64,000 bases of DNA from Plasmodiophora brassicae (lineage: Eukaryota), in NCBI GenBank assembly GCA_036867785.1, contig CP145425.1, positions 248,001 to 312,000 on the forward strand, in the 5' to 3' direction. The notes beneath the pieces were generated by a model. It worked only from the letters and a program-made list of their open reading frames with translations, was not told where the DNA came from and made no database searches. Shown here one piece after another: positions 19,901-31,711 of this stretch. The first letter of the stretch is position 1, and each line of letters begins with the position of its first letter. Both the position numbers and the translations under genes were made by a program.

Positions 19901-22080
19901 ACGAGGACCCCAGATGGAATGATGCAAGCAAGGCACAGCAGCGTCTCGGCAAGCTACCATATTCGTCAGCAGTCGTCCAAACACTGAAACGAAACCAACA
20001 AGGACCAACATTGTCCTGGAAATCAAGTGAATGCACATTCTGGAAGGTGGCTTCCGTGTGTTGATTGTTCGCCAGAGGCACCACGCCGACCAAGATCTGA
20101 TCTGGACTTATTACGTGAGGAGCCTCAACTCTCTTGAACTCGAGTCAGGAGGCGAATACTCCCCACGTAACGGTAAGTACGTACCTGTTCAAACGACGTG
20201 CCAAGTTCTGCAGCAAACGTCCCCAAAGGAAATAGGGTGCCTGCTGACGTTTTAAAGGCTTCAGGAAACGCATGTCATTATGGAACGCACCTGATGCGAC
20301 GATTATTGTTGATGCTGCGCTGGACAGTTGTTGCATTGCTAAAGCCGGCGATAAGCACCATATTGAAAACTAACGATCAAATGGGACATTAGCTGGACAT
20401 AAAGTGAAGACGCACGACTCGTAAACGTCTTCACCTCGTACTCCCAGGCGTCACCGGTTGCAGACTGCCGAGTGACGACCAGTCTGAAATGTCTGGCATT
20501 GTCGTCTTCCGCATACATAAGCTCCAGGCATGAACAAACCCCATCGCAGAGGCGCAGAGCGAGCAGAACGCGCCCACGTTCATCACCGCTTTGTGAATAG
20601 ACTAAAGATCAAGTGTTAACGTGTCAGTATATGATGAAAAACAATGTTACGGGTACCTTGGTGACTTTGTCGTTCACCTTCAAGGTTTCCTGCCTCTTCC
20701 CCGACGTCTCGGTAGCGCTCGCCAATTTGCTGATACAGGGAGTAGCATTTAGAAGCCGCAACGGTATACGCTGCCACATAGCCCGACATTAATCGCCTTG
20801 CGCATAGCTGGTACTACATCAGGCCCAAGCGCATGCGTTTGCAGCAGGGAGAGCATGTCAGCCTTATCTCTATAAAAGGAGTCTTGCTGGAACGCATCAG
20901 CTTTCATTTGGCCTGAGTAGCCACAACATGAGCAGCAAGCAGGCCATGTGCAATACTGCATCGGTACCTGACGCATGCTCAATCAAACGATTTAGCCCGT
21001 CAATAGCACTTGTAAGAGGATCGCCATCCTCGACGCAGGAAAGCCCGTCCAGGATAACTTGGACCTGGTTCCGAGAAACGGTACAACTTGACGCCTCACG
21101 GGCGACATTCTCAATGTTGTGGGCCTATAAAGCCACATGAGTTCACGAGACGCTTTGAAACCCATCGTTAAGGACGAGCAGACCTCGTCAAAGATGAGGA
21201 CCGAACCCTTAAGGCTTAGCCCGAGGCTCCTTCGGATAGGCGGGTCGATGACGTAATTGTACGGGCAGAGCACCAGTTTGGCAGAATTCGGCGTTCGCAG
21301 CATAGACCGTGCTGTAAAGTACGGGCATGCATTGATCTTTTCCCCCGCTTTGCATAGATCCTCAATGTCATAGACCCCGTTGCCGCGTTCGATCGCCGCC
21401 CTTAGACGATACTGGTTGTTGAACGCGTCGCACTGCTTGTTATTCAAGAGATTAGTACAGTTCTCGTCAGCGGATACCCTACGATGGGCAACATTCAGGC
21501 CGCCGGTCACATTGCGCATGGCGATACGACCGAACCCAGATGTCTTGTTGATGCACAGTTGTTCGCGTGAACCAAGGATCGTCATCGGCTTCGGTCTGTA
21601 GACGGTTCGATTGAGCTCTTTGACGACCTGTGTTAATTGCGAATGCGTTCGCGACATCTGCCACGACAAGCTGTCATTGCCCTTGCCAACGATGCGACCG
21701 TAAGGGCTCCCGACATAGTATACAGTAGGAATCTTGACCGATTGCGGGTCAGTTTCAAGGGCAGCGCGATCCTCGAGAGCCTTCTGATAGGCAAGGACGC
21801 TGCAGAGCAAAGCCAGCGATTTCCCTGGTCGTCCAGATTACACCGCAGCATAATGACCCCCTATCAGGGGCAGTACCTGTTCCAGTCGGGGATTCCACGA
21901 GCGCATTCTATGAACAGCAGTAAGCGACTGAGCGCGCGCACGAGACGCCGGCGCGGCGCAGACCTGTCCCTTCTGCAACGCGGACAGGACTTTGGACGCA
22001 ACCATCATCTGGGCCGGGTATGGCGTTTCGAAAGGGAAGCAGACCTCGATGCCGTTGACCTTGCGGGCGCACGACGACAT
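16997..22080 (-). CDS. BRIP1: XPD/DinG-family Fe-S DNA helicase, FANCJ-like
   Basis: [80 protein letters not shown]. Long low-complexity C-tail with a CxxC..CxxC module. Many introns. Confidence 0.8.
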
Positions 22081-22370
22081 GGGTGCCAGCCCCTGGACGA
22101 GATGTCACAGTGTGTCACGGGGTTTCCTGCCGCGACGGCTCAGTGGTCACTGCTGACCAGTGGCCACTCTGCTGACCCATTCCCAACCCGACGACGCCAT
22201 GCAGGCCCACTGCAGAACGAACAGCAACCATCCACAAGCACACAGGGAACACGGCAATGCAGTACGCGCAACACAACGCAAGATAACGAAGTGTAAGACG
22301 GCGCATTGGAGTAGATCGAGTATAAGCATAGAGCCAGGTGGGAGGAGCGCCATTTCATGGCATGCCCTCA

Positions 22371-24838
22371 TCATGGGTTGTTGGTGGCAGGCGCTCCCTG
22401 GCGTCTGACTTGGGCGACAGGTTTAGGTGCGTTTGCTTGTTCCGCAGGACTGTCCGCTTTCGGACGCCAGCGATGACGATTTCGCTTTCGAGCGTCTGCT
22501 GGAGCAGTAGGAGCAGCTGCAGGCACCTTATCGGACGCGTCCGGCAACGGGCTCGCGAGAGCGACCAACGTCTCCATGCCATCGTTAGGTGGCGCCGTGG
22601 TCATGGCTCCATTAGCCGAAGGTGGTTGGGCGCGTGCAGGTTTGGGTCTTTTCTTTCGCATTACGGCATTCACAGGGCCACGAGAAGCAACCGCCTCCTC
22701 AGACGTGTCGTCTTCTTTCTGATCGGTCGATGACGGATTCTCTGACTTCTCGCCGTGTCGTGTCTTAGAGCGGCCTTTCGGGGTCGCCAGCTCCTTGTTC
22801 GCCGCGTCCTTGCGCTTCGACGGCGGCGGTTTCGGCTGACGCCTCTTGACCGGTTCAACGACTTTTTCCCATGGCTGGCAAGTACTAAGCAGGTCGTACG
22901 CGCGTCGGAACTCGTCTTCAATCCGTACTGCTATTTCCTACGTAAGATGTTGTGAGCACCCAGTCCGGAAACGGGACTTCCGGGAGCGTACCATAGAAAC
23001 GTTACGCCCAACGTTATCTCGTTTGTCGAACGGGTCAATGATACAGTAGTTGAAGTGCTGAAAGTCGTGGAACATTGCGATGCGGTCTTCCGCTGCCTCA
23101 GGCAGTGTACGCGCTTCGCCAGTGCTGATACAGATTGCTTGGCGAGTCGGGCTGCACTCGATGCTGTAAAACTTGAAGAACGAGTACAACAGCCCACCTA
23201 TGCAACGTAGAAGTGTTTAAACCAAGCGCCAACGTACTCAGAACAAACATACCAATCGAATCAGTGTTGTCAGTACGCCAGGACGTGAATGGGCTAGAAA
23301 GGAAAGGGTTCGGACTGTTTTTCGTTGCCTGGGCAACCTCATCACTGGACGCCATGGCCTGTGCGTTGGGGATAACCGGCGGGCTGCAATGCTGCAAGAA
23401 GTACAGCACGAGAAGGGTGTACCCGAAAGAGTTTAACGAGCCCTTCGATGCATCTCCGATGAACCGGGCTTTGCTCCAGAACTGATGTACCACAGACCCC
23501 GTTAGCAACCTGTGGTTGATGTTGCAGTACATGAGCGACCTTGACTGCTGCGATGAGCTGTGGAACGCGAGGGTCCTTTTCCGCATAGGCTCGCAGCAGC
23601 CACGTTTTCGAACGTTGCGAGTCGGAATCATTCTTCAATGTGAAATCACACTCGAGCTGAAGTTGCCGATGTTGGAACTTCACAACCGGGACCCGGGCTG
23701 AACGGACGTGCAGCGATGAGTTGCAATCGAGGGCAGGGACAAGAGACGTACCGCCCGAGATCAGGCGCGTTATCCCCAGTCGGCGCTTCTTGAGGACTTT
23801 ATACCATGCTCTATTGAAAGGATCAGCCGTTCGGAATCATTCTTAACCAGCGAACAATATTCATACCTGAGGACGGCTTCAGGGTTGGTGACGTCGCCGA
23901 TCAAGGCAATATCGAGATCGGATCTATCCGACGACAAATTGCATGGAACGGACCCGAATAGCTCCAGATGGAGACCGAATTCACGTCCTTCGGCCTCGCG
24001 AAGCGCCTTCCGAGTGAAGCCATCGGCAAGAATACGCGTCAGCAGTGTGATGACCTGTTGAAAAGACCACGTCAGTGGACGAAGAGCGCCGGATGGTGGG
24101 CGCTTCCCACTTCTGAGCGTTTGTCGATCGTCTCCTGTTTCGGTCGCACTGTCGCATACCACGAGTCGACCGACACGCTTACGGCAGGCAGAGCCGCAAC
24201 AACAGACTCTCTGGAACAATGAACAACAGCGGGGCGCTTCGACCGAAACCATCGACATCAGATGCGCAGCTGAATATACCAAACGACCGTACCTTCTTTC
24301 GTGACTCGAGCACACGGTTCCGTCGTTCCATCTGCGACACGAGTCAGCTACGTACGTCAGCGCTTGCAAACGAGGGCGGCATGCATTGCCTTCAGAGCCG
24401 CGTCGTCCTTCGCTATCCGAAGGCGAACGACCAAGTCGCCGAGCTCGCGTTTGTCGTTTGCCAGGGCGCGTTCCACCGAGGCCGGGTCGCTGAACGTGAC
24501 AATGGCGAACGCCCGATCCTTCTTCCGCAGCAGCCTGCCTTGTCTGATGTCCACGCCGACGATCCGATCGGCGACGTCGACAAACAGCGACCGGACCGTC
24601 GTCTCGTCGGCAGTCGCAGGGAGCGGCCGAACAAACACGGCGTTCACCTACAAACGACGGTCACTGCACTACCTGGGTGGGTTGGAACCGACGTACCTAC
24701 CTGCGTCCCGCTGGCCGCTGCCGACGTCGGATGCTCACCGTCCGCCTCGACCTCAACAGACAGCGGATGCGGACGCGCCACCCGCTGATCGCCGTCGCCG
24801 ACGCCCAGGACGGCGACGCCGTTCACGAGAGCGTCCAT
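22371..24838 (-). CDS. RRM + Cid1/TUT-family terminal nucleotidyltransferase (copy 1)
   Basis: RRM AVFVRPLP..RAFAIVTF. Catalytic LFGSVPCNLSSDRSDLDI and ECDFT. GSLNSFGYTLLVLYFLQHCSPPVIPN. PAP-associated motif CIIDPFDKRDNVGRNVS. Confidence 0.9.
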
Positions 24839-25132
24839 CAAAGATGCCGTGGGACCACCACGGCCCGGAGGACGGGTTCGTCGCGCTCAACGGGGCCGCT
24901 CGCGAATTTCTGCCACGGTCCGGCCAGAGAGAGCAGAAAACGCGATCGGACCCGCGAGCAACCAACCGGGTTCTCGCCCGGGAGACCGGAACCGGGTCCG
25001 GCGGCATGGCCACGCCCGTCAATGTGGCCGGTAACAGCGCGGTGTCATCCCCGAAGCCGCCGTGTTTCTGGGGTGGACAGCGACGAATACGAACCATATG
25101 TATGATGAGGCTACCAGTAGTCATCGTACTGT

Positions 25133-27554
25133 CTACAGCCTGAGCCTTGCCAGAGTTCGGACAACGGTGCTGGTCCAGGAGGAACCTCGTCGCAGGGCGA
25201 CTGGCTGTGAACTGAACCGGCAGCGCCCGTTCACAGGAGGGGCTTGCCAGGGTCGCGTAACAGGAGCCGGTTGTGCGGTAGGCGAGTGACGTTGGTCTCG
25301 GCGAGCGCGCCGCCCGACGTGTTGCATTCGTTCCAGATCGGTTCGGAGATGGGATGGTCTGGCCAGGCGCTCATCGGGGACAGTCGCTGCGCTCGCGCCC
25401 GCAAGGCGACCAGGGGCGGCTTCGGCGAACGGATCTTCACCAGCATGGTCAAGGGCGCCCGGTCTCCGTTCGTTGCCTTCACTACTGCTGATCTCTGGCC
25501 GGGCCTCTCTTGACGGCGCTCCGCTAAATCCATACCGACGTGACGCCGCTTCCGACAGGGATCTGTTGCTGCGGTGCTTGCGCGGCGGTTCGATAACCGC
25601 CTCCCAGGGTTTGCACGTGCCGAGCATGTCGTAGGCCCTCCGAATCTCCCTCTCGATACGTTCCGCAGTCGCCTGAATCAATATCAGGGCCCAACGAAGG
25701 CAGAACTGATGCGGTTCCTGACCGCGGACACGTTCCGCGCGACGTTGTCGTTTCGGTCGAACGGGTCGGCGATGCAAAAGCTGATGTGCTGGTTGTCGTG
25801 GAACATGGTGACCCGGTCTTCGATGTGGGACGGGGCCGGGCGTGGCTCTCCTTCGCGAATGCACACGACTTGCTGCGTCGGACTGCACTCGGTGCTGTAG
25901 AACTCGAACATGGAGTAGAGAAGCTGACCTGGCGATGGGAGTAGTTAGGACACACGCCATCGCGGCTGGCGTACTGTGCCTGCACGGTACCAATTGAGTC
26001 CTGGTTCCGGGAACGCCATTTCATGAACGAGTCCGACAGGAACGGGTTCGTTGATTCCTGATCCGTCTTCGCCAGGGCCGCAGCGACGACTTCGGGCGCC
26101 ACCAAACGCTGCGCGTTTGGCAGAATCGGCGGGTGGCAGCACTGCAGGAACTGGATCGCAAGAAGTGTGAAGCCGAACGCGCTCAGCGACCCTTTGTGCG
26201 CTCGGGCAACCAGGCGGTGCTTGCCCCACAGCTGTGGCAGCGCTTGGGACGGGATTTCATAAGTACCATGACGAACGGCCTACCTTGACTGCGGCAATAA
26301 GTCGTGGTACACGAGAATCCTTCTGAGCATACGCGCTCAGTAGCCAGGTCTTCAGACGGTTGTTGTCGTTCGATTCTATGATGGAGATGTCGCAGTCGAT
26401 GTCCGTTTCCCGATGATGCAATTCAACAATCGGTGTTCGAGCTAACACAGATTCAGGCTCTAAACTAACAGCATCCGTTTACATTGGTGTCCTACCGTGC
26501 TGAATCAGATCTGTTCTTCCAAGGTATCGCCGCCGTAGTACCCTCCACCAGGCTCTGCAACATAAAGCACTCAGGATAACGATAGCACAATGCCAATGGC
26601 ACGTACCGAAGCACTGCGTCACGATCATTGACCCTGCCTACAAGGCCAATGTCCAGGTCGGATGACTTTGTGGACAGGTTGCAGGACACGGAGCCGAACA
26701 GTGCCATTCGAAGGCCTACGTCGGCTCCATTCGCGTCACTTAGCGCTTGCTGAGTTCGCTTCTCCTGGAGTATCGTTCTGATCTCCTCAAGAACCTAATT
26801 TTCAACACTGAATGTTGTTCCCGCTGATATGACGACGTAGCACCTTAGAACGACGGGCCGCAGTCTCCTCACATGGGGATACGTCGTCGTACCAGGTTTC
26901 AACAGCATCGGCTACACCCATCAATCCGACAGCGACATCGTCTTCGGAGCAATGCGACGCGCCGGAAGACGCCTGCAACCCATTCCTCAGGAAAGAAGCG
27001 CTACACAAACTGTAGATGACGATACCCTGGGTCGTGGCAGTTGCCTGATCAAGAACGCCTGAACCTTTGTCAGAACCTTCACAGTGCGATTAATGTGGTT
27101 TGCGTATACCTTCCTCTCACTAATGCTCTGGAGCGGGTTCACCCGAGCGACGAGGTCGCCGACCCTCAACCGATCAAACACAAGCGCTCGCAGCATCGCA
27201 TCATTGTCCTGAAACTCGACCGTCGCCGAGACGCGCAGTTGTCGGGTCCTCATTGGAGTAAACGTGACGCGTACAATCCGGTCCGATAGACCAGTGAACA
27301 TTGACCTGATCAGGTCCTCGGTGGCATCGCCAGGCAGCGGACGAACGAACAGTGATACGCCCTGGAATCGTTCGGCAAACGCGATTCATAAGATGGATCC
27401 GCACAGAGTACCTCCGGGGCTAAAGGTTCATTCAGCAGCGTCCATGTAGGTTCCGACCTCGGGTCCTCCTGCGAAGCGAGCAGCAAATCACGCGATGCCT
27501 CGTGGTTGATCTCGCGTCACCATAACGTACCAGAGAAGACGCGTGATCACCCAT
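25133..27554 (-). CDS. RRM + Cid1/TUT-family terminal nucleotidyltransferase (copy 2, tandem paralog)
   Basis: RRM SLFVRPLPGDATE..ATVEF. LFGSVSCNLSTKSSDLDI, ARTPIVELHH..DCDISI, GSLSAFGFTLLAIQFLQ, CIADPFDRNDNVARNVS. Start inferred through two short 5' exons; the 3' end is uncertain. Confidence 0.85.
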
Positions 27555-27892
27555 TTTACACGTTGACAAGTCTGGCCCTCCCCCGTCAACATTCTGCACG
27601 ATGCGCAAGTCACACACGTGCTCAAGCAGCAAACCATCAAACACCAAACATCGTCGCGGTTCCAGGCCTGCCGACGCGCCTGTCAACTCAGCCATCACTG
27701 AACAGCGGTCCCGTTTTTGATGAAATCATCGCCCTCACCTGCTTCATATCGGCATACAACGAATCGAGACCACCCCTGGCCATGACGGCGTTGATGATGA
27801 TCGATTGCACAGAGGACTCGCGAGTCGCGGCGCGGGTTCCGGCCTCCGGGTCCGTCAATGACGCGAGCGGGTAGCTTCACACGTTACGCGGA

Positions 27893-28075
27893 CTTATTCC
27901 CGAGACTGATCCCCAGACTGATCCCGAGACTGATCCCGAGACTGATCCCGAGACTGATCCCGAGACTGATCCCGAGACTGATCCCGAGACTGATCCCGAG
28001 ACTGATCCAGAGACTGACCCCGAGACTGACCCCGAGACCGATCCCGAGACTGATCCCGAGACTGATCCCGAGACT
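27893..28075. repeat. 12-bp tandem minisatellite (ACTGATCCCGAG), about 15 copies
   Basis: Directly visible: 14 full units at 27905-28072 plus a degenerate first unit, with a few point variants. Confidence 0.97.
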
Positions 28076-28178
28076 AAACCAGCGGTTCTTCCGGGACAGG
28101 CATCAACGATCAGGCCGTCGTTCCCCGTGTCAGATCCGATATTATTGGAAGAACCGGTACACCGTGTAAGTATTGAGA

Positions 28179-28742
28179 ATGAAGGTGGACATGCAAGCGA
28201 CCGCGCAAGCGTACCAGACCATGTTGCGGAGCAGCAAGCCTGGCGTGAAGGTCTTGGGCTTGCTGCGCCCGCTGGCACAGGTGCTGATCCCCCTGATGGT
28301 GATCGCGCTGTGGTGGTGCGCTGGTGAACTCGCAGACGATAGGGCACCTGATAAGGTGCAGGATGCGATCCGCAAAGTGCAGTTCATCTTGGTCTGGTGG
28401 TCGTTTCTTTACATTGCCCTGTGGGTTCTGTTAATGCTCGCGACGTCTTCCGAGACAATGTTGGCGTGGGCGGCGGCAACATCTGCTGTCATGTCGCAAT
28501 GTAGCATGCTGCTGGCGATTAATAACGGAAACGGCCAGAGTGATTGCGGAACCATGGTTGCCACCATTGGCGGTATTCTGACGTTCGCGCTGTCCGGAAT
28601 CGCTGCACTCATCATTTTCCAGCAACAGCATCTTGAAACGGGCCAGGCTTCGGCCGCGATTGGCGCCGCTCCTGAGTACCCGCCAGACCTCAATGACAAG
28701 GTGACATCCATGTACGCCGTTACCGACAATTCTGCTGCGTAA
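28179..28742 (+). CDS. Hypothetical multi-pass (about 4 TM) membrane protein
   Basis: Intronless ORF with hydrophobic stretches VLIPLMVIALWW, FILVWWSFLYIALWVLLML, MLAWAAATSAVM..MLLAI, TIGGILTFALSGIAALIIF. Confidence 0.6.
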   Translation: MKVDMQATAQAYQTMLRSSKPGVKVLGLLRPLAQVLIPLMVIALWWCAGELADDRAPDKVQDAIRKVQFILVWWSFLYIALWVLLMLATSSETMLAWAAATSAVMSQCSMLLAINNGNGQSDCGTMVATIGGILTFALSGIAALIIFQQQHLETGQASAAIGAAPEYPPDLNDKVTSMYAVTDNSAA

Positions 28743-29265: not shown

Positions 29266-31711
29266 TCAGACCAATGCGTTTGTAGTTCTGCCATTGGGGG
29301 AACACAGGAAGCAGGAACCCGAGACGGGCGCTCCTATGGCGACTGGCACCACGCCGCAGTTCGATGACAAGATGCCCGTGAACGTCATTGTCGTCGCCCC
29401 CAGCTTCATGAAACACATGCCAGTACGTGTGTATATACATGGCCGTAAACGAGAGGGATACAGTCTGTCGCTGGCAATGTATTTCGCGGTCATGTAGCTG
29501 ATCGCATAGTTCGTGATCATGGGATTCACACCGGACGACGTAGGGAACACGGATGCATCTGCGACGAACAGGTTGGTGCACTCCCAGACCTCACCATGCG
29601 GCGACACAACGCCGTCGTCAGGCGATGCGCCCATCCGACACGTCCCCATTTGGTGGGCGGAGAACAGGTCGGTGTCGAGGTTATGCACGCCATGCCGGCT
29701 CACGTTGGCGATAAATCTCTCCACGTCGGGGTCGTTAATCTCACGTGAACGCGGGAACAAAGCACCGACGCTGCCTTGCGATGTTCGAACCTCGTTCGCG
29801 CCTAGTTGCAGCGGATTCAGCAACACGAATGGCATCGGTTGGGTAACGCGTACCTGCAGCGACAAGAACCTTGACGGCGTGGATGAGCCCGTCAGTGACA
29901 CTTTCCCCATCGAAGGGGCTGACGTTAAAGTCGATCTGTGGCTGTCCTTCTTCATCGACGCTCACGGACGCATCGCGATCGCGATCGCGAACAAGGGAGA
30001 TGACGGGCAGCGCGTGCTTGAACCTGGCAAAGTCACGCTTGTGCTGCGCCGACGATGACCATTGCAGCAGCGTTGCGAATAGCCCCGGGTGCATCATCGG
30101 GATTTCAAGCTTCGCTCCATAGTGCTGCCCATCTTGGTTGCCGGCGACGTTCGACAACGCCGTCATGATGCTGCCATCCCAGGTCCTGATCTCTTCGTCA
30201 AAGAGCCCAACGGCAACAGCGACTGGGTGCACCCCGAAGTGCTTCCCAATATGACGATTGGACAGGCCGGAACGAAGCAGCAGCGCTGGCGAATGCAAAG
30301 ACCCTGGCGGAGAGGTGCAAACGGATCAGATCGCGCAAGTGGTGATCAGCACCAGTTACCTGCGGAACAGACGACGATCGCAGATCGAACGACGATTGGC
30401 GGCCCGTTCCTGATAGAACACTCGATGCCGACGGCAGTGCCGTTCTCGATGACGACTCGGCTGACCATGCACTCCTGGACGAACTTGGCACCCGCGTCAC
30501 GCGCATCGCAAAGCCACGACTCGGGGCCGCTTTGCTTGACGCCGGATGGGCATCCCAGCCCACAGAACCCGCACCGGTGCTCCTTCAGGCCCGTGTTCTG
30601 GGGAATGCTTTGGTGATGGAATCCGAGACGTTGACAGGCATCGAGCATCTTCATGTTGCTCACGTTATGGACCGTGAACGTGTCGCTTACGCCCATGCGA
30701 TTGCAAACGGCGTCGACCGCGTCCTGGAATTCGACACTGAGAAACGAGGGAAGGTCGTGCTTCTTCGCCCATTCTTCCCGGAGCCAGTTGGGCGGTCGTA
30801 GGCTGGCAGACCAGTTCACGGCTGTGCCTCCGCCAAACGTCGACCCGGCGAACAGAAGCAGGGCGCCGTTCTCTGACGCCAGGAGACCCTCTCGTTCGAA
30901 CATCTTCTCCATTGCATCCTGCTCGATCAGCGCATGCTGGTCGCTTTGGTAGTACTTGCCCTTCTCGACGACAAGAACAGACTTACCCGCCTGTGCTAAA
31001 ACCGATGCGCAGACCGACCCACCCGCACCTGATCCCACGATTATGACATCGAAGTGGGCACCTCGTAAAGCGTCTTCGCCCAGGAATTCGTACTGGGGTG
31101 GCGTACGTTTGGGAATTGCGGAGCGAACCAGGTCGGGACCTGGGTACCTACGTGAATCAAACGGCAGATGGTTGGAAACGACACTTATGCAGGGTATTGG
31201 GCGTACCCGATCTCGGCCCAAATCGAGGTCGGTGGGTTCATGTACACATGCGTCATCGACATGATCTTCAGAACGCGATACAGAACTATCAGGTTAGGGA
31301 CCGGTGACTGCCATCAACAATGACTTCGCAAGTGCAAGAAGGGGGAAACCCGCCAAGTGAACGCACCGTTGAAAACAGGTTCAGAAGCCTGGTCCTGCGT
31401 TCAAGCGACAGCAACGCGAACGGCGAGAACATGGTGCCACCGGATACAACCAGGATCCCGTACGAGTTCGACAGGATCGCAAGGCCCAGGATAAACTGTC
31501 TATACGCGCGCCGGTTCAACTTGCGTCGCATGCTAGCCACCACGGCCGTCGCCGACTGGACCGACGACCCCGACAACTTCAGCAACGACGTCCCGCCCTC
31601 ATGTTCAGGCGCCACAAACGTGTCCAGAACGGCGACGACTGTCGCCAGTTCGCCCGGGGTCGGGTCCCGACCAACTTCACCGACGACGTATCGCGCAATC
31701 CAATCGTCCAT
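29266..31711 (-). CDS. Long-chain fatty alcohol oxidase (GMC oxidoreductase)
   Basis: FDVIIVGSGAGG..VLVVEKG, AGSTFGGGTAVNWSAS, CGFCGLGCPSGVKQ, SAHQMGTCRMG, LFVADASVFPTSSGVNPMIT. The exact 3' end is uncertain. Confidence 0.9.

Follow-up and report, generated by a model that had tools for sequence, protein, structure and literature searches.

In Cid1, uracil is read by His336, which contacts O4, by Asn171, the "pyrimidine sensor" that contacts O2 and the 2'-OH, by a water to Ser210 and by stacking on Tyr212; Ser211 contacts the gamma-phosphate (PMC3479196). Other enzymes add U without the histidine. Trypanosome terminal uridylyltransferases (TUTases) that lack it reach O4 through water and Arg340 (PMC3479196), and Arabidopsis HESO1 (At2g39740) prefers UTP over the other three nucleoside triphosphates (PMC4415760), a choice made without the canonical His that has been flagged as unexplained (PMC5689010). 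HESO1 occasionally adds C and makes CU/UC tails, according to a review (PMC13030794), and within a survey of Archaeplastida it was confined to Viridiplantae (PMC7994812). Here we analyse two adjacent genes, A and B, in a 64,000-nucleotide (nt) stretch of the genome of the clubroot parasite Plasmodiophora brassicae (contig CP145425.1, positions 248,001 to 312,000; hereafter the window), both of which encode a predicted terminal nucleotidyltransferase (TENT) with Asp in place of the UTP-selecting His. Pocket positions are given in Cid1 numbering throughout. We put at about an even chance that both genes encode His-independent, HESO1-like U-tailing enzymes, which would be tandem duplicates in the P. 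brassicae lineage fused to an RNA recognition motif (RRM).

A duplicated enzyme with an altered pocket

The minus strand carries genes A and B as tandem paralogs in head-to-tail order. Because their proteins (P0156 and P0155) are 48% identical over 461 residues in pairwise comparison, and six core intron positions in spliced protein mapping are common to both, we read them as the products of a tandem duplication. Both genes are expressed and spliced. All nine introns of gene B are present as RNA joints in each of three runs from three studies (X1, X2 and X4), which are not recorded as RNA and are treated as such since their contigs skip introns, and a model assembled from these nine introns reproduces P0155 exactly. 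Four of the 12 introns of gene A are among the RNA joints listed (there are nine further joints besides these), and the rest were deduced from piece lengths and depths.

Both proteins contain Pfam RRM_1, with the palm (PF22600) and poly(A) polymerase (PAP)-associated (PF03828) domains above cut-off. The hGS motif, the DxD and the third catalytic Asp of TENTs all align in both, and the catalytic triads (D249/D251/D303 in A, D233/D235/D287 in B) are intact, as a sequence-only reading of the window had held. By sequence and structure search, the closest solved relatives of the core are TUT4/7, URT1, CutA and Cid1. An AlphaFold model of gene B (mean predicted local distance difference test score 73.7, core mostly >90) has the TENT fold in Foldseek, matching CutA (top), TUT1, TUT7, URT1 and Cid1, with template-modelling scores of 0.68-0.85, by target, for the catalytic-module chains of Cid1, URT1 and TUT7. 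From these signals A and B are assigned to the Cid1-family TENTs, fused to an RRM and with their triads intact; among 22 relatives scanned with Pfam, the two with an RRM are the pair itself.

The closest sequence matches are to the catalytic modules of URT1, Cid1 and TUT4-TUT7 (E 5e-40 to 4e-21), with which the pair has in common the triad and nucleotide-recognition motif (NRM) length; it differs in His336 to Asp, Asn171 to Lys and Tyr212 to Phe, and in having neither zinc knuckles nor a Lin28 module. The Asp that the sequence-only reading had placed at the His position indeed falls on the His336 column in both copies. The gene B motif aligns without gaps to DPFDLNHNL of TUT4/TUT7 and DPFETSHDL of URT1, and the gene A motif falls in the same column of an alignment of 152 proteins (the 150 best among 5,012 search matches plus those of two further searches, minus six duplicates or fragments). 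That reading had, by our alignment, overlooked a second base-contacting residue, Asn171, which is Lys in both copies, so that the His and the Asn are both replaced. Phe212 and Arg340 are also common to the two, and Ser210 is Asn in B.

Among the 152 aligned homologs, 83 have His at position 336, 27 have Arg and 19, both window proteins included, have Asp. Lys171 accompanies Asp336 in 17 of these 19, none of which has Asn there, as against one of 128 others, and, of 18 Lys171 proteins in which column 336 is occupied, 17 carry Asp336. Asn210 occurs in 17 of the Asp336 proteins, Phe212 in 18 and Arg340 in all 19 (23 of 127 others). The resulting signature, Lys171/Asn210/Phe212/Asp336/Arg340, is complete in copy B, whereas copy A, like its relative P0002, has no Asn210. 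Besides the pair, named members of this lineage are Leptophrys vorax and Nonionella stella. In a 41-row tree built without the six signature columns, 12 of 14 signature proteins still group at 94/89, although all 14 together reach only 70/41; the pair, P0002 and Leptophrys are supported at 97/92 and the pair alone at 100/99, sister to the single P0002. Asp at this column marks a coherent group of proteins and is not due to chance, and its retention in both copies reflects what was ancestral in the lineage. The co-occurrence of Lys171 and Asp336 may reflect one or two ancestral events and not independent covariation. The idea that the Asp is a peculiarity of P. brassicae was discarded, since 17 other aligned proteins carry it.

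A metagenome scan added eight loci, seven of the signature type and one an Asn/His protein, with search patterns biased towards the signature. A search for viral copies found none, and a word-limited profile search returned seven proteins with no further named Lys/Asp member. The literature searched, which covers few subscription papers, mentioned neither tailing enzymes of Rhizaria nor a signature of Lys171 with Asp336.

Predicted tailing specificity

The likeness to HESO1 consists of a Cid1-type core without the His, together with Lys171 and Arg340 in both copies and Asn210 in copy B only (not in A or P0002). In Arabidopsis HESO1 the motifs LLKSR, GTFNSY and DPFEQPVNAAR supply Lys171, Asn210, Val336 and Arg340 (PMC10816777, PMC12628625), the matches on the HESO1 side having been made by eye at the level of motifs. 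Soybean HESO1 orthologs, in rows of a supplementary table, have Gln at 336; the Mesotaenium protein P0119 has Lys171, Asn210 and Glu336; and wheat TaNTP4A/4D (DPVERPDNAAR) and TaNTP4B (DPFQRLDNAAR) all have Asp336, as in the pair, plus Lys171 and Asn210. The homology of TaNTP4 to HESO1 is given by a phylogeny section and a collinearity table, although one later paragraph of the same paper swaps the labels (PMC12628625). As this series (Val, Gln, Glu, Asp) shows, position 336 varies within a U-adding family. Further, TRAID-seq has identified U-adders without the His, and His-bearers that add A, G or all four bases (10.1101/422972), so that residue 336 alone predicts specificity in neither direction. 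The sequence-only reading had argued from the Asp to a non-standard specificity. The pocket is indeed non-canonical, more so than was claimed, but wheat orthologs of a proven uridylase carry Asp336 and therefore Asp336 alone does not imply a non-U tail; on our analysis the inference is weakened by HESO1, by wheat TaNTP4 and by the TRAID-seq results.

If A and B are HESO1-like uridylases, the RRM would bind RNA and the core would extend small RNAs, Argonaute-cut fragments or the ends of mRNAs with short tails rich in U and perhaps containing some C, marking them for turnover. Lys171 would take the O2/ribose side of uracil in place of Asn171, Asn210 and/or Arg340 would serve O4, Phe212 would stack on the base, and Asp336 would have the structural role of holding Arg340. 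Since the full signature is present in copy B, this is likely the main enzyme and copy A a diverged duplicate. A partial parallel is offered by trypanosome MEAT1, a His-less U-specific enzyme with Phe at the Tyr212 position and an Asn that contacts O4 (PMC3479196). MEAT1 is distant from the pair (E 5e-4), and the position of its Asn181 near column 210 (178-180 vs 181), taken from alignment end-points only, is suggestive.

Several observations weigh against a HESO1-like uridylase. The carboxylate of Asp336 cannot donate to O4, and CutA N403A, changed at the equivalent of Asn171, loses its activity with UTP and ATP and keeps that with CTP (PMC7498324). Plant HESO1 keeps Tyr212, with Tyr-Ser/Ala at 212-213 where the pair has Phe-Gly, and differs from it in the pair's N-terminal RRM; Asn210 is missing from gene A and P0002; and plant HESO1 varies at position 336, where the protist lineage has fixed Asp. 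Common ancestry with HESO1 could be assessed only through P0119, a long branch and the sole proxy in trees without named HESO1 sequences. Its grouping has a support of 54, a forced clade of the protist proteins with P0119 is neutral once the signature columns are removed (p-AU 0.22 in the approximately unbiased test, neither rejected nor favoured), and its top BLAST matches are URT1-type proteins. The ESM Atlas was non-discriminating, returning generic TENT clusters with the HESO1 cluster at row 5 by structure and at rank 20 for P0119. No assay of any Asp336 enzyme was found in the literature searched (the one OsHESO1 paper is a flowering-time study), and the portions examined of a 2026 table of Cid1 mutants include neither H336D nor N171K (PMC13702519). 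Searches of the genome for HEN1 and for the Dis3L2 C-terminus gave no confident match, negatives that their controls make weak.

The alternative that fares best is C-rich or mixed tailing, in which the pocket's polarity would be reversed, Asp in place of His accepting the 4-amino group and Lys in place of Asn donating to O2/N3, so that CTP, and less so ATP, would be favoured across the Lys/Asp lineage. We consider this possible though on balance unlikely. In Cid1 it is His336, a donor, that selects against CTP (PMC3479196); the CutA mutant described above is left with CTP activity only (PMC7498324); the C occasionally added by HESO1 itself (PMC13030794) and the tight association of Lys171 with Asp336 point the same way. 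However, the same Lys/Asn/Arg set, plus the wheat Asp, occurs in the U-preferring HESO1 family, the Lys/Asp association may amount to one ancestral event, and the geometry is inferred from Cid1. CutA itself, a fungal C/U adder, resembles the pair as the top Foldseek match of the gene B model and in having its His replaced, but it has Arg at 336 and keeps Asn171, and its Glu330...Arg336 type of NRM is not found in the pair. A broader form of the proposal, which we regard as unlikely, is that the Lys171/Phe212/Asp336/Arg340 lineage (Phytomyxea, a vampyrellid, a foraminiferan and other protists) would be a TENT subfamily not yet described, with the polarity of its pocket reversed and with C-rich or C/A tails, separate from fungal CutA and only partly convergent with HESO1, and would make the main 3' mark of P. 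brassicae.

It is distinctly unlikely that the pair are non-canonical oligo(A) polymerases, in which Asp336 would place Arg340 in the manner of Asn336 in Cid1 H336N and Trf4, the Arg would read adenine N1 and loss of the Asn171 sensor would favour ATP. The Cid1 H336N structure does show an Asn336-Arg340-N1(ATP) arrangement, Asn171 is a sensor of pyrimidines (PMC3479196), and all of the Asp336 proteins have Arg340. Yet HESO1, with Arg340 and Lys171, still prefers UTP (PMC4415760), this Arg placed into CutA raised U and not A (PMC5689010), CutA N403A loses rather than gains ATP activity (PMC7498324), and the genome already holds a canonical Trf4 besides a Trf4-like family that has expanded. Described motif classes include DxxDxxN in Trf4/TENT4, a deletion at the His position in GLD-2 and NxxExxL in mtPAP (PMC5689010, PMC4931116); the NRM of the pair, DxxDxxD-N at full length, matches none of these three.

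The sequence-only reading also raised a dedicated two-enzyme system, in which A and B would form a complex or add different bases one after the other. The copies are in tandem, are both expressed, have diverged to just 48% identity and differ at positions 210/211 and in the ribonucleoprotein motif RNP1. We judge such a system improbable: the two copies arose after their lineage parted from the single P0002, as the support for the pair indicates, the six core intron positions are still shared, the Asp is ancestral and not a feature of the pair alone, and this genome has many tandem duplicates, such as the two Argonautes and the Trf4-like arrays. The paired arrangement was not seen elsewhere, among the few relatives whose neighbourhoods could be viewed. 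Copy A, moreover, shows signs of relaxation, namely Ser211 to Ala, a degenerate RNP1 and, in two of the three RNA-like runs, retention of an intron (26795-26843) that brings an in-frame stop ahead of the catalytic domain. Because it has lost Asn210, Ser211 and the RNP1 aromatics, retains this intron and, at 0.52 vs 0.38 for B in the 41-row tree, sits on the longer branch, copy A looks like a second copy that is relaxed or regulated, although a specificity of its own is possible.

Guanine can pair with a carboxylate through its N1-H and N2-H. That Asp336 reads this N1/N2 edge and the enzymes add G, as the sequence-only reading allowed, is nevertheless very improbable, since the loss of Asn171, which makes no purine contact in Cid1, is set against a Cid1 in which bound GTP is syn and poorly extended (PMC3479196), a CutA that excludes GTP and a HESO1 that shares the signature and prefers UTP (PMC4415760).

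Gene models, RRMs and neighbours

The extent first given for the pair, 22371..27554, is right for the end of gene B and for an RRM-TENT pair, but the start of gene A belongs at 27783, where P0156 maps and where the bin depths of an X1 contig, by our own arithmetic, agree with upstream exons (Table 1). A single fused gene was rejected, because A ends in a stop codon (25133-25135), B begins with an ATG of its own and the two lie on separate contigs in all three RNA-like runs. The 294-nt gap between them (24839-25132) is wholly under RNA contigs (X1 to 25126, X2 from 24947), which may be abutting or overlapping untranslated regions or read-through. The database models P0001 and P0006 use, at their C-termini (22371-22936 and 25133-25672), predicted introns that are absent from the RNA contigs, with which P0155 and P0156 agree. 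X2 pieces over gene A are short by 311 nt, equal to six introns, including 26795-26843.

A fourth run, X15, is unspliced over 21700-28300, without intron joints, and comes from a diverged strain (about 1.5% different). None of the 16 variants checked in the gene B core hits a signature codon; this run has 48 more variants besides these. Just upstream of gene A, at 27888-28080, is a 12-nt tandem repeat, GATCCCGAGACT, one frame of which reads as PETD repeats; it has scant or zero RNA contig cover and raised DNA depth.

The RRMs resemble those of eIF4B/4H and Musashi: the top match in the Protein Data Bank (PDB) is the eIF4B RRM for A (E 3e-6) and the Musashi RRM for B (E 0.002). TUT1/Star-PAP, the U6 TUTase, is the database label of both proteins and was the comparison drawn by the sequence-only reading, and it is similar in having an RRM ahead of the nucleotidyltransferase core. 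TUT1 combines a zinc finger, a TUT1-type RRM, an NRM with His and KA1. The pair has a weaker core match to it (E about 4e-16), no Pfam zinc finger, a disordered C-terminus and no His, and TUT1 is not among the 34 + 7 PDB matches of its RRMs. We therefore set TUT1 orthology aside, given the weaker core match, the RRMs and the zinc finger that Pfam did not detect. A role on U6 is possible, though the RRMs are not TUT1-like.

Table 1. Positions of genes A and B, their predicted functional sites and neighbouring genes in the window
Feature	Position	Strand	Description and basis
Gene A coding sequence	25133..27783	-	666 amino acids (aa), 13 exons, 12 introns; RRM + Cid1-family TENT, P0156; spliced mapping, RNA contigs of 3 studies, Pfam
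Gene A RRM exon	27110..27361	-	RNP2 Phe kept, RNP1 aromatics lost (VSATVEF); judged against the RNP consensus
Gene A intron, 49 nt	26795..26843	-	Retained in X1 and X4 RNA contigs (ungapped pieces 26607-26971), spliced in X2
Gene A catalytic Asp249, Asp251	26651..26659	-	Spliced mapping
Gene A third catalytic Asp303, Lys316	26350..26391	-	Asp303 at 26389-26391; Lys316 (Cid1 Asn171 position) at 26350-26352; alignment and mapping
Gene A Ser355-Ala356-Phe357	26175..26183	-	Cid1 S210/S211/Y212; without the lineage's Asn210 and the gamma-phosphate Ser211
Gene A NRM, DPFDRNDNVAR (ADPFDRNDNVARNV)	25735..25767	-	Asp479 (codon 25747-25749) at Cid1 His336 position; Arg483 at Arg340
Gene B coding sequence	22371..24838	-	655 aa, 10 exons, 9 introns; RRM + Cid1-family TENT, disordered C-terminal tail, P0155; RNA joints, AlphaFold model
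Gene B RRM exon	24390..24647	-	RNP2 VFVRPL, RNP1 RAFAIVTF
Gene B GC-AG intron	24332..24389	-	RNA contigs and spliced mapping
Gene B catalytic Asp233, Asp235	23911..23919	-	Spliced mapping
Gene B third catalytic Asp287, Lys300	23606..23647	-	Asp287 at 23645-23647; Lys300 (Cid1 Asn171 position) at 23606-23608; alignment and mapping
Gene B Asn339-Ser340-Phe341	23425..23433	-	Cid1 S210/S211/Y212; alignment and mapping
Gene B NRM, DPFDKRDNVGR (IDPFDKRDNVGRNV)	23004..23036	-	Asp459 (codon 23016-23018) at Cid1 His336 position; Arg463 at Arg340
DEAD_2 (Rad3-like) helicase	20992-22080	-	Neighbour; Pfam
Small hydrophobic open reading frame (ORF)	28170-28742	+	Neighbour; no Pfam match
GMC oxidoreductase	29266-31293	-	Neighbour; Pfam

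Genome context and significance

Pfam searches of the genome gave 33 PAP_assoc and 23 palm matches. We inspected the loci of 40 of these (many overlapping) and 10 longer stretches; these loci are presumably Trf4-like apart from three genes, of which one is NTP6/7-like, one resembles canonical PAP and one is divergent. No His-type TUTase motif was found in the loci inspected, in searches made exon by exon, and this pair is the top match in the genome to both URT1-type and HESO1-type queries. At L059:2433-3539 (G000:C3:665 kb) lies a divergent single-ORF nucleotidyltransferase with intact Asp residues and the unusual motif DPIIGTINLAR. Roughly 25 of the 33 PAP_assoc matches form a large Trf4/TENT4-like expansion arranged in tandem, whose ORFs are long (about 700-940 aa) and free of introns and whose N-terminal halves carry no annotation (G000:C3:1.686-1.723 Mb, C1:1.568-1.595 Mb, C8:1.262-1.266 Mb, C4:195-198 kb and others; L003-L041, L055-L064). 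Some copies have altered catalytic motifs, and one of eight checked (L055) opens with a hydrophobic, signal-peptide-like stretch.

The genome also holds U6, USB1 and three RNB genes. Two tandem Argonaute genes at G000:C12:592-596 kb (L053, L054) have already been described, and P. brassicae was reported in 2026 to have 21-nt small RNAs and a Dicer-less RNAi pathway (PMC13547706). Because of the Argonautes, the 21-nt RNAs and this pathway, small RNAs or Argonaute-cut fragments are plausible substrates for the pair. The terms uridyl-, HEN1, tailing and nucleotidyl- do not occur in the main text of that report.

The set of residues common to these proteins and HESO1, Lys171/Asn210/Asp336/Arg340, offers a concrete and mutable hypothesis for how UTP may be chosen without the His, and nature provides a series with which to probe it, with Val, Gln, Glu or Asp at 336 and Asn or Ser at 210. 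If the pair does prefer UTP, HESO1-like chemistry would reach Rhizaria, and A and B would be candidate turnover enzymes for the Dicer-less RNAi of P. brassicae. If C or A were preferred instead, a tailing specificity of a new class would extend over a eukaryotic supergroup, and the enzyme might be of use in synthesizing RNA.

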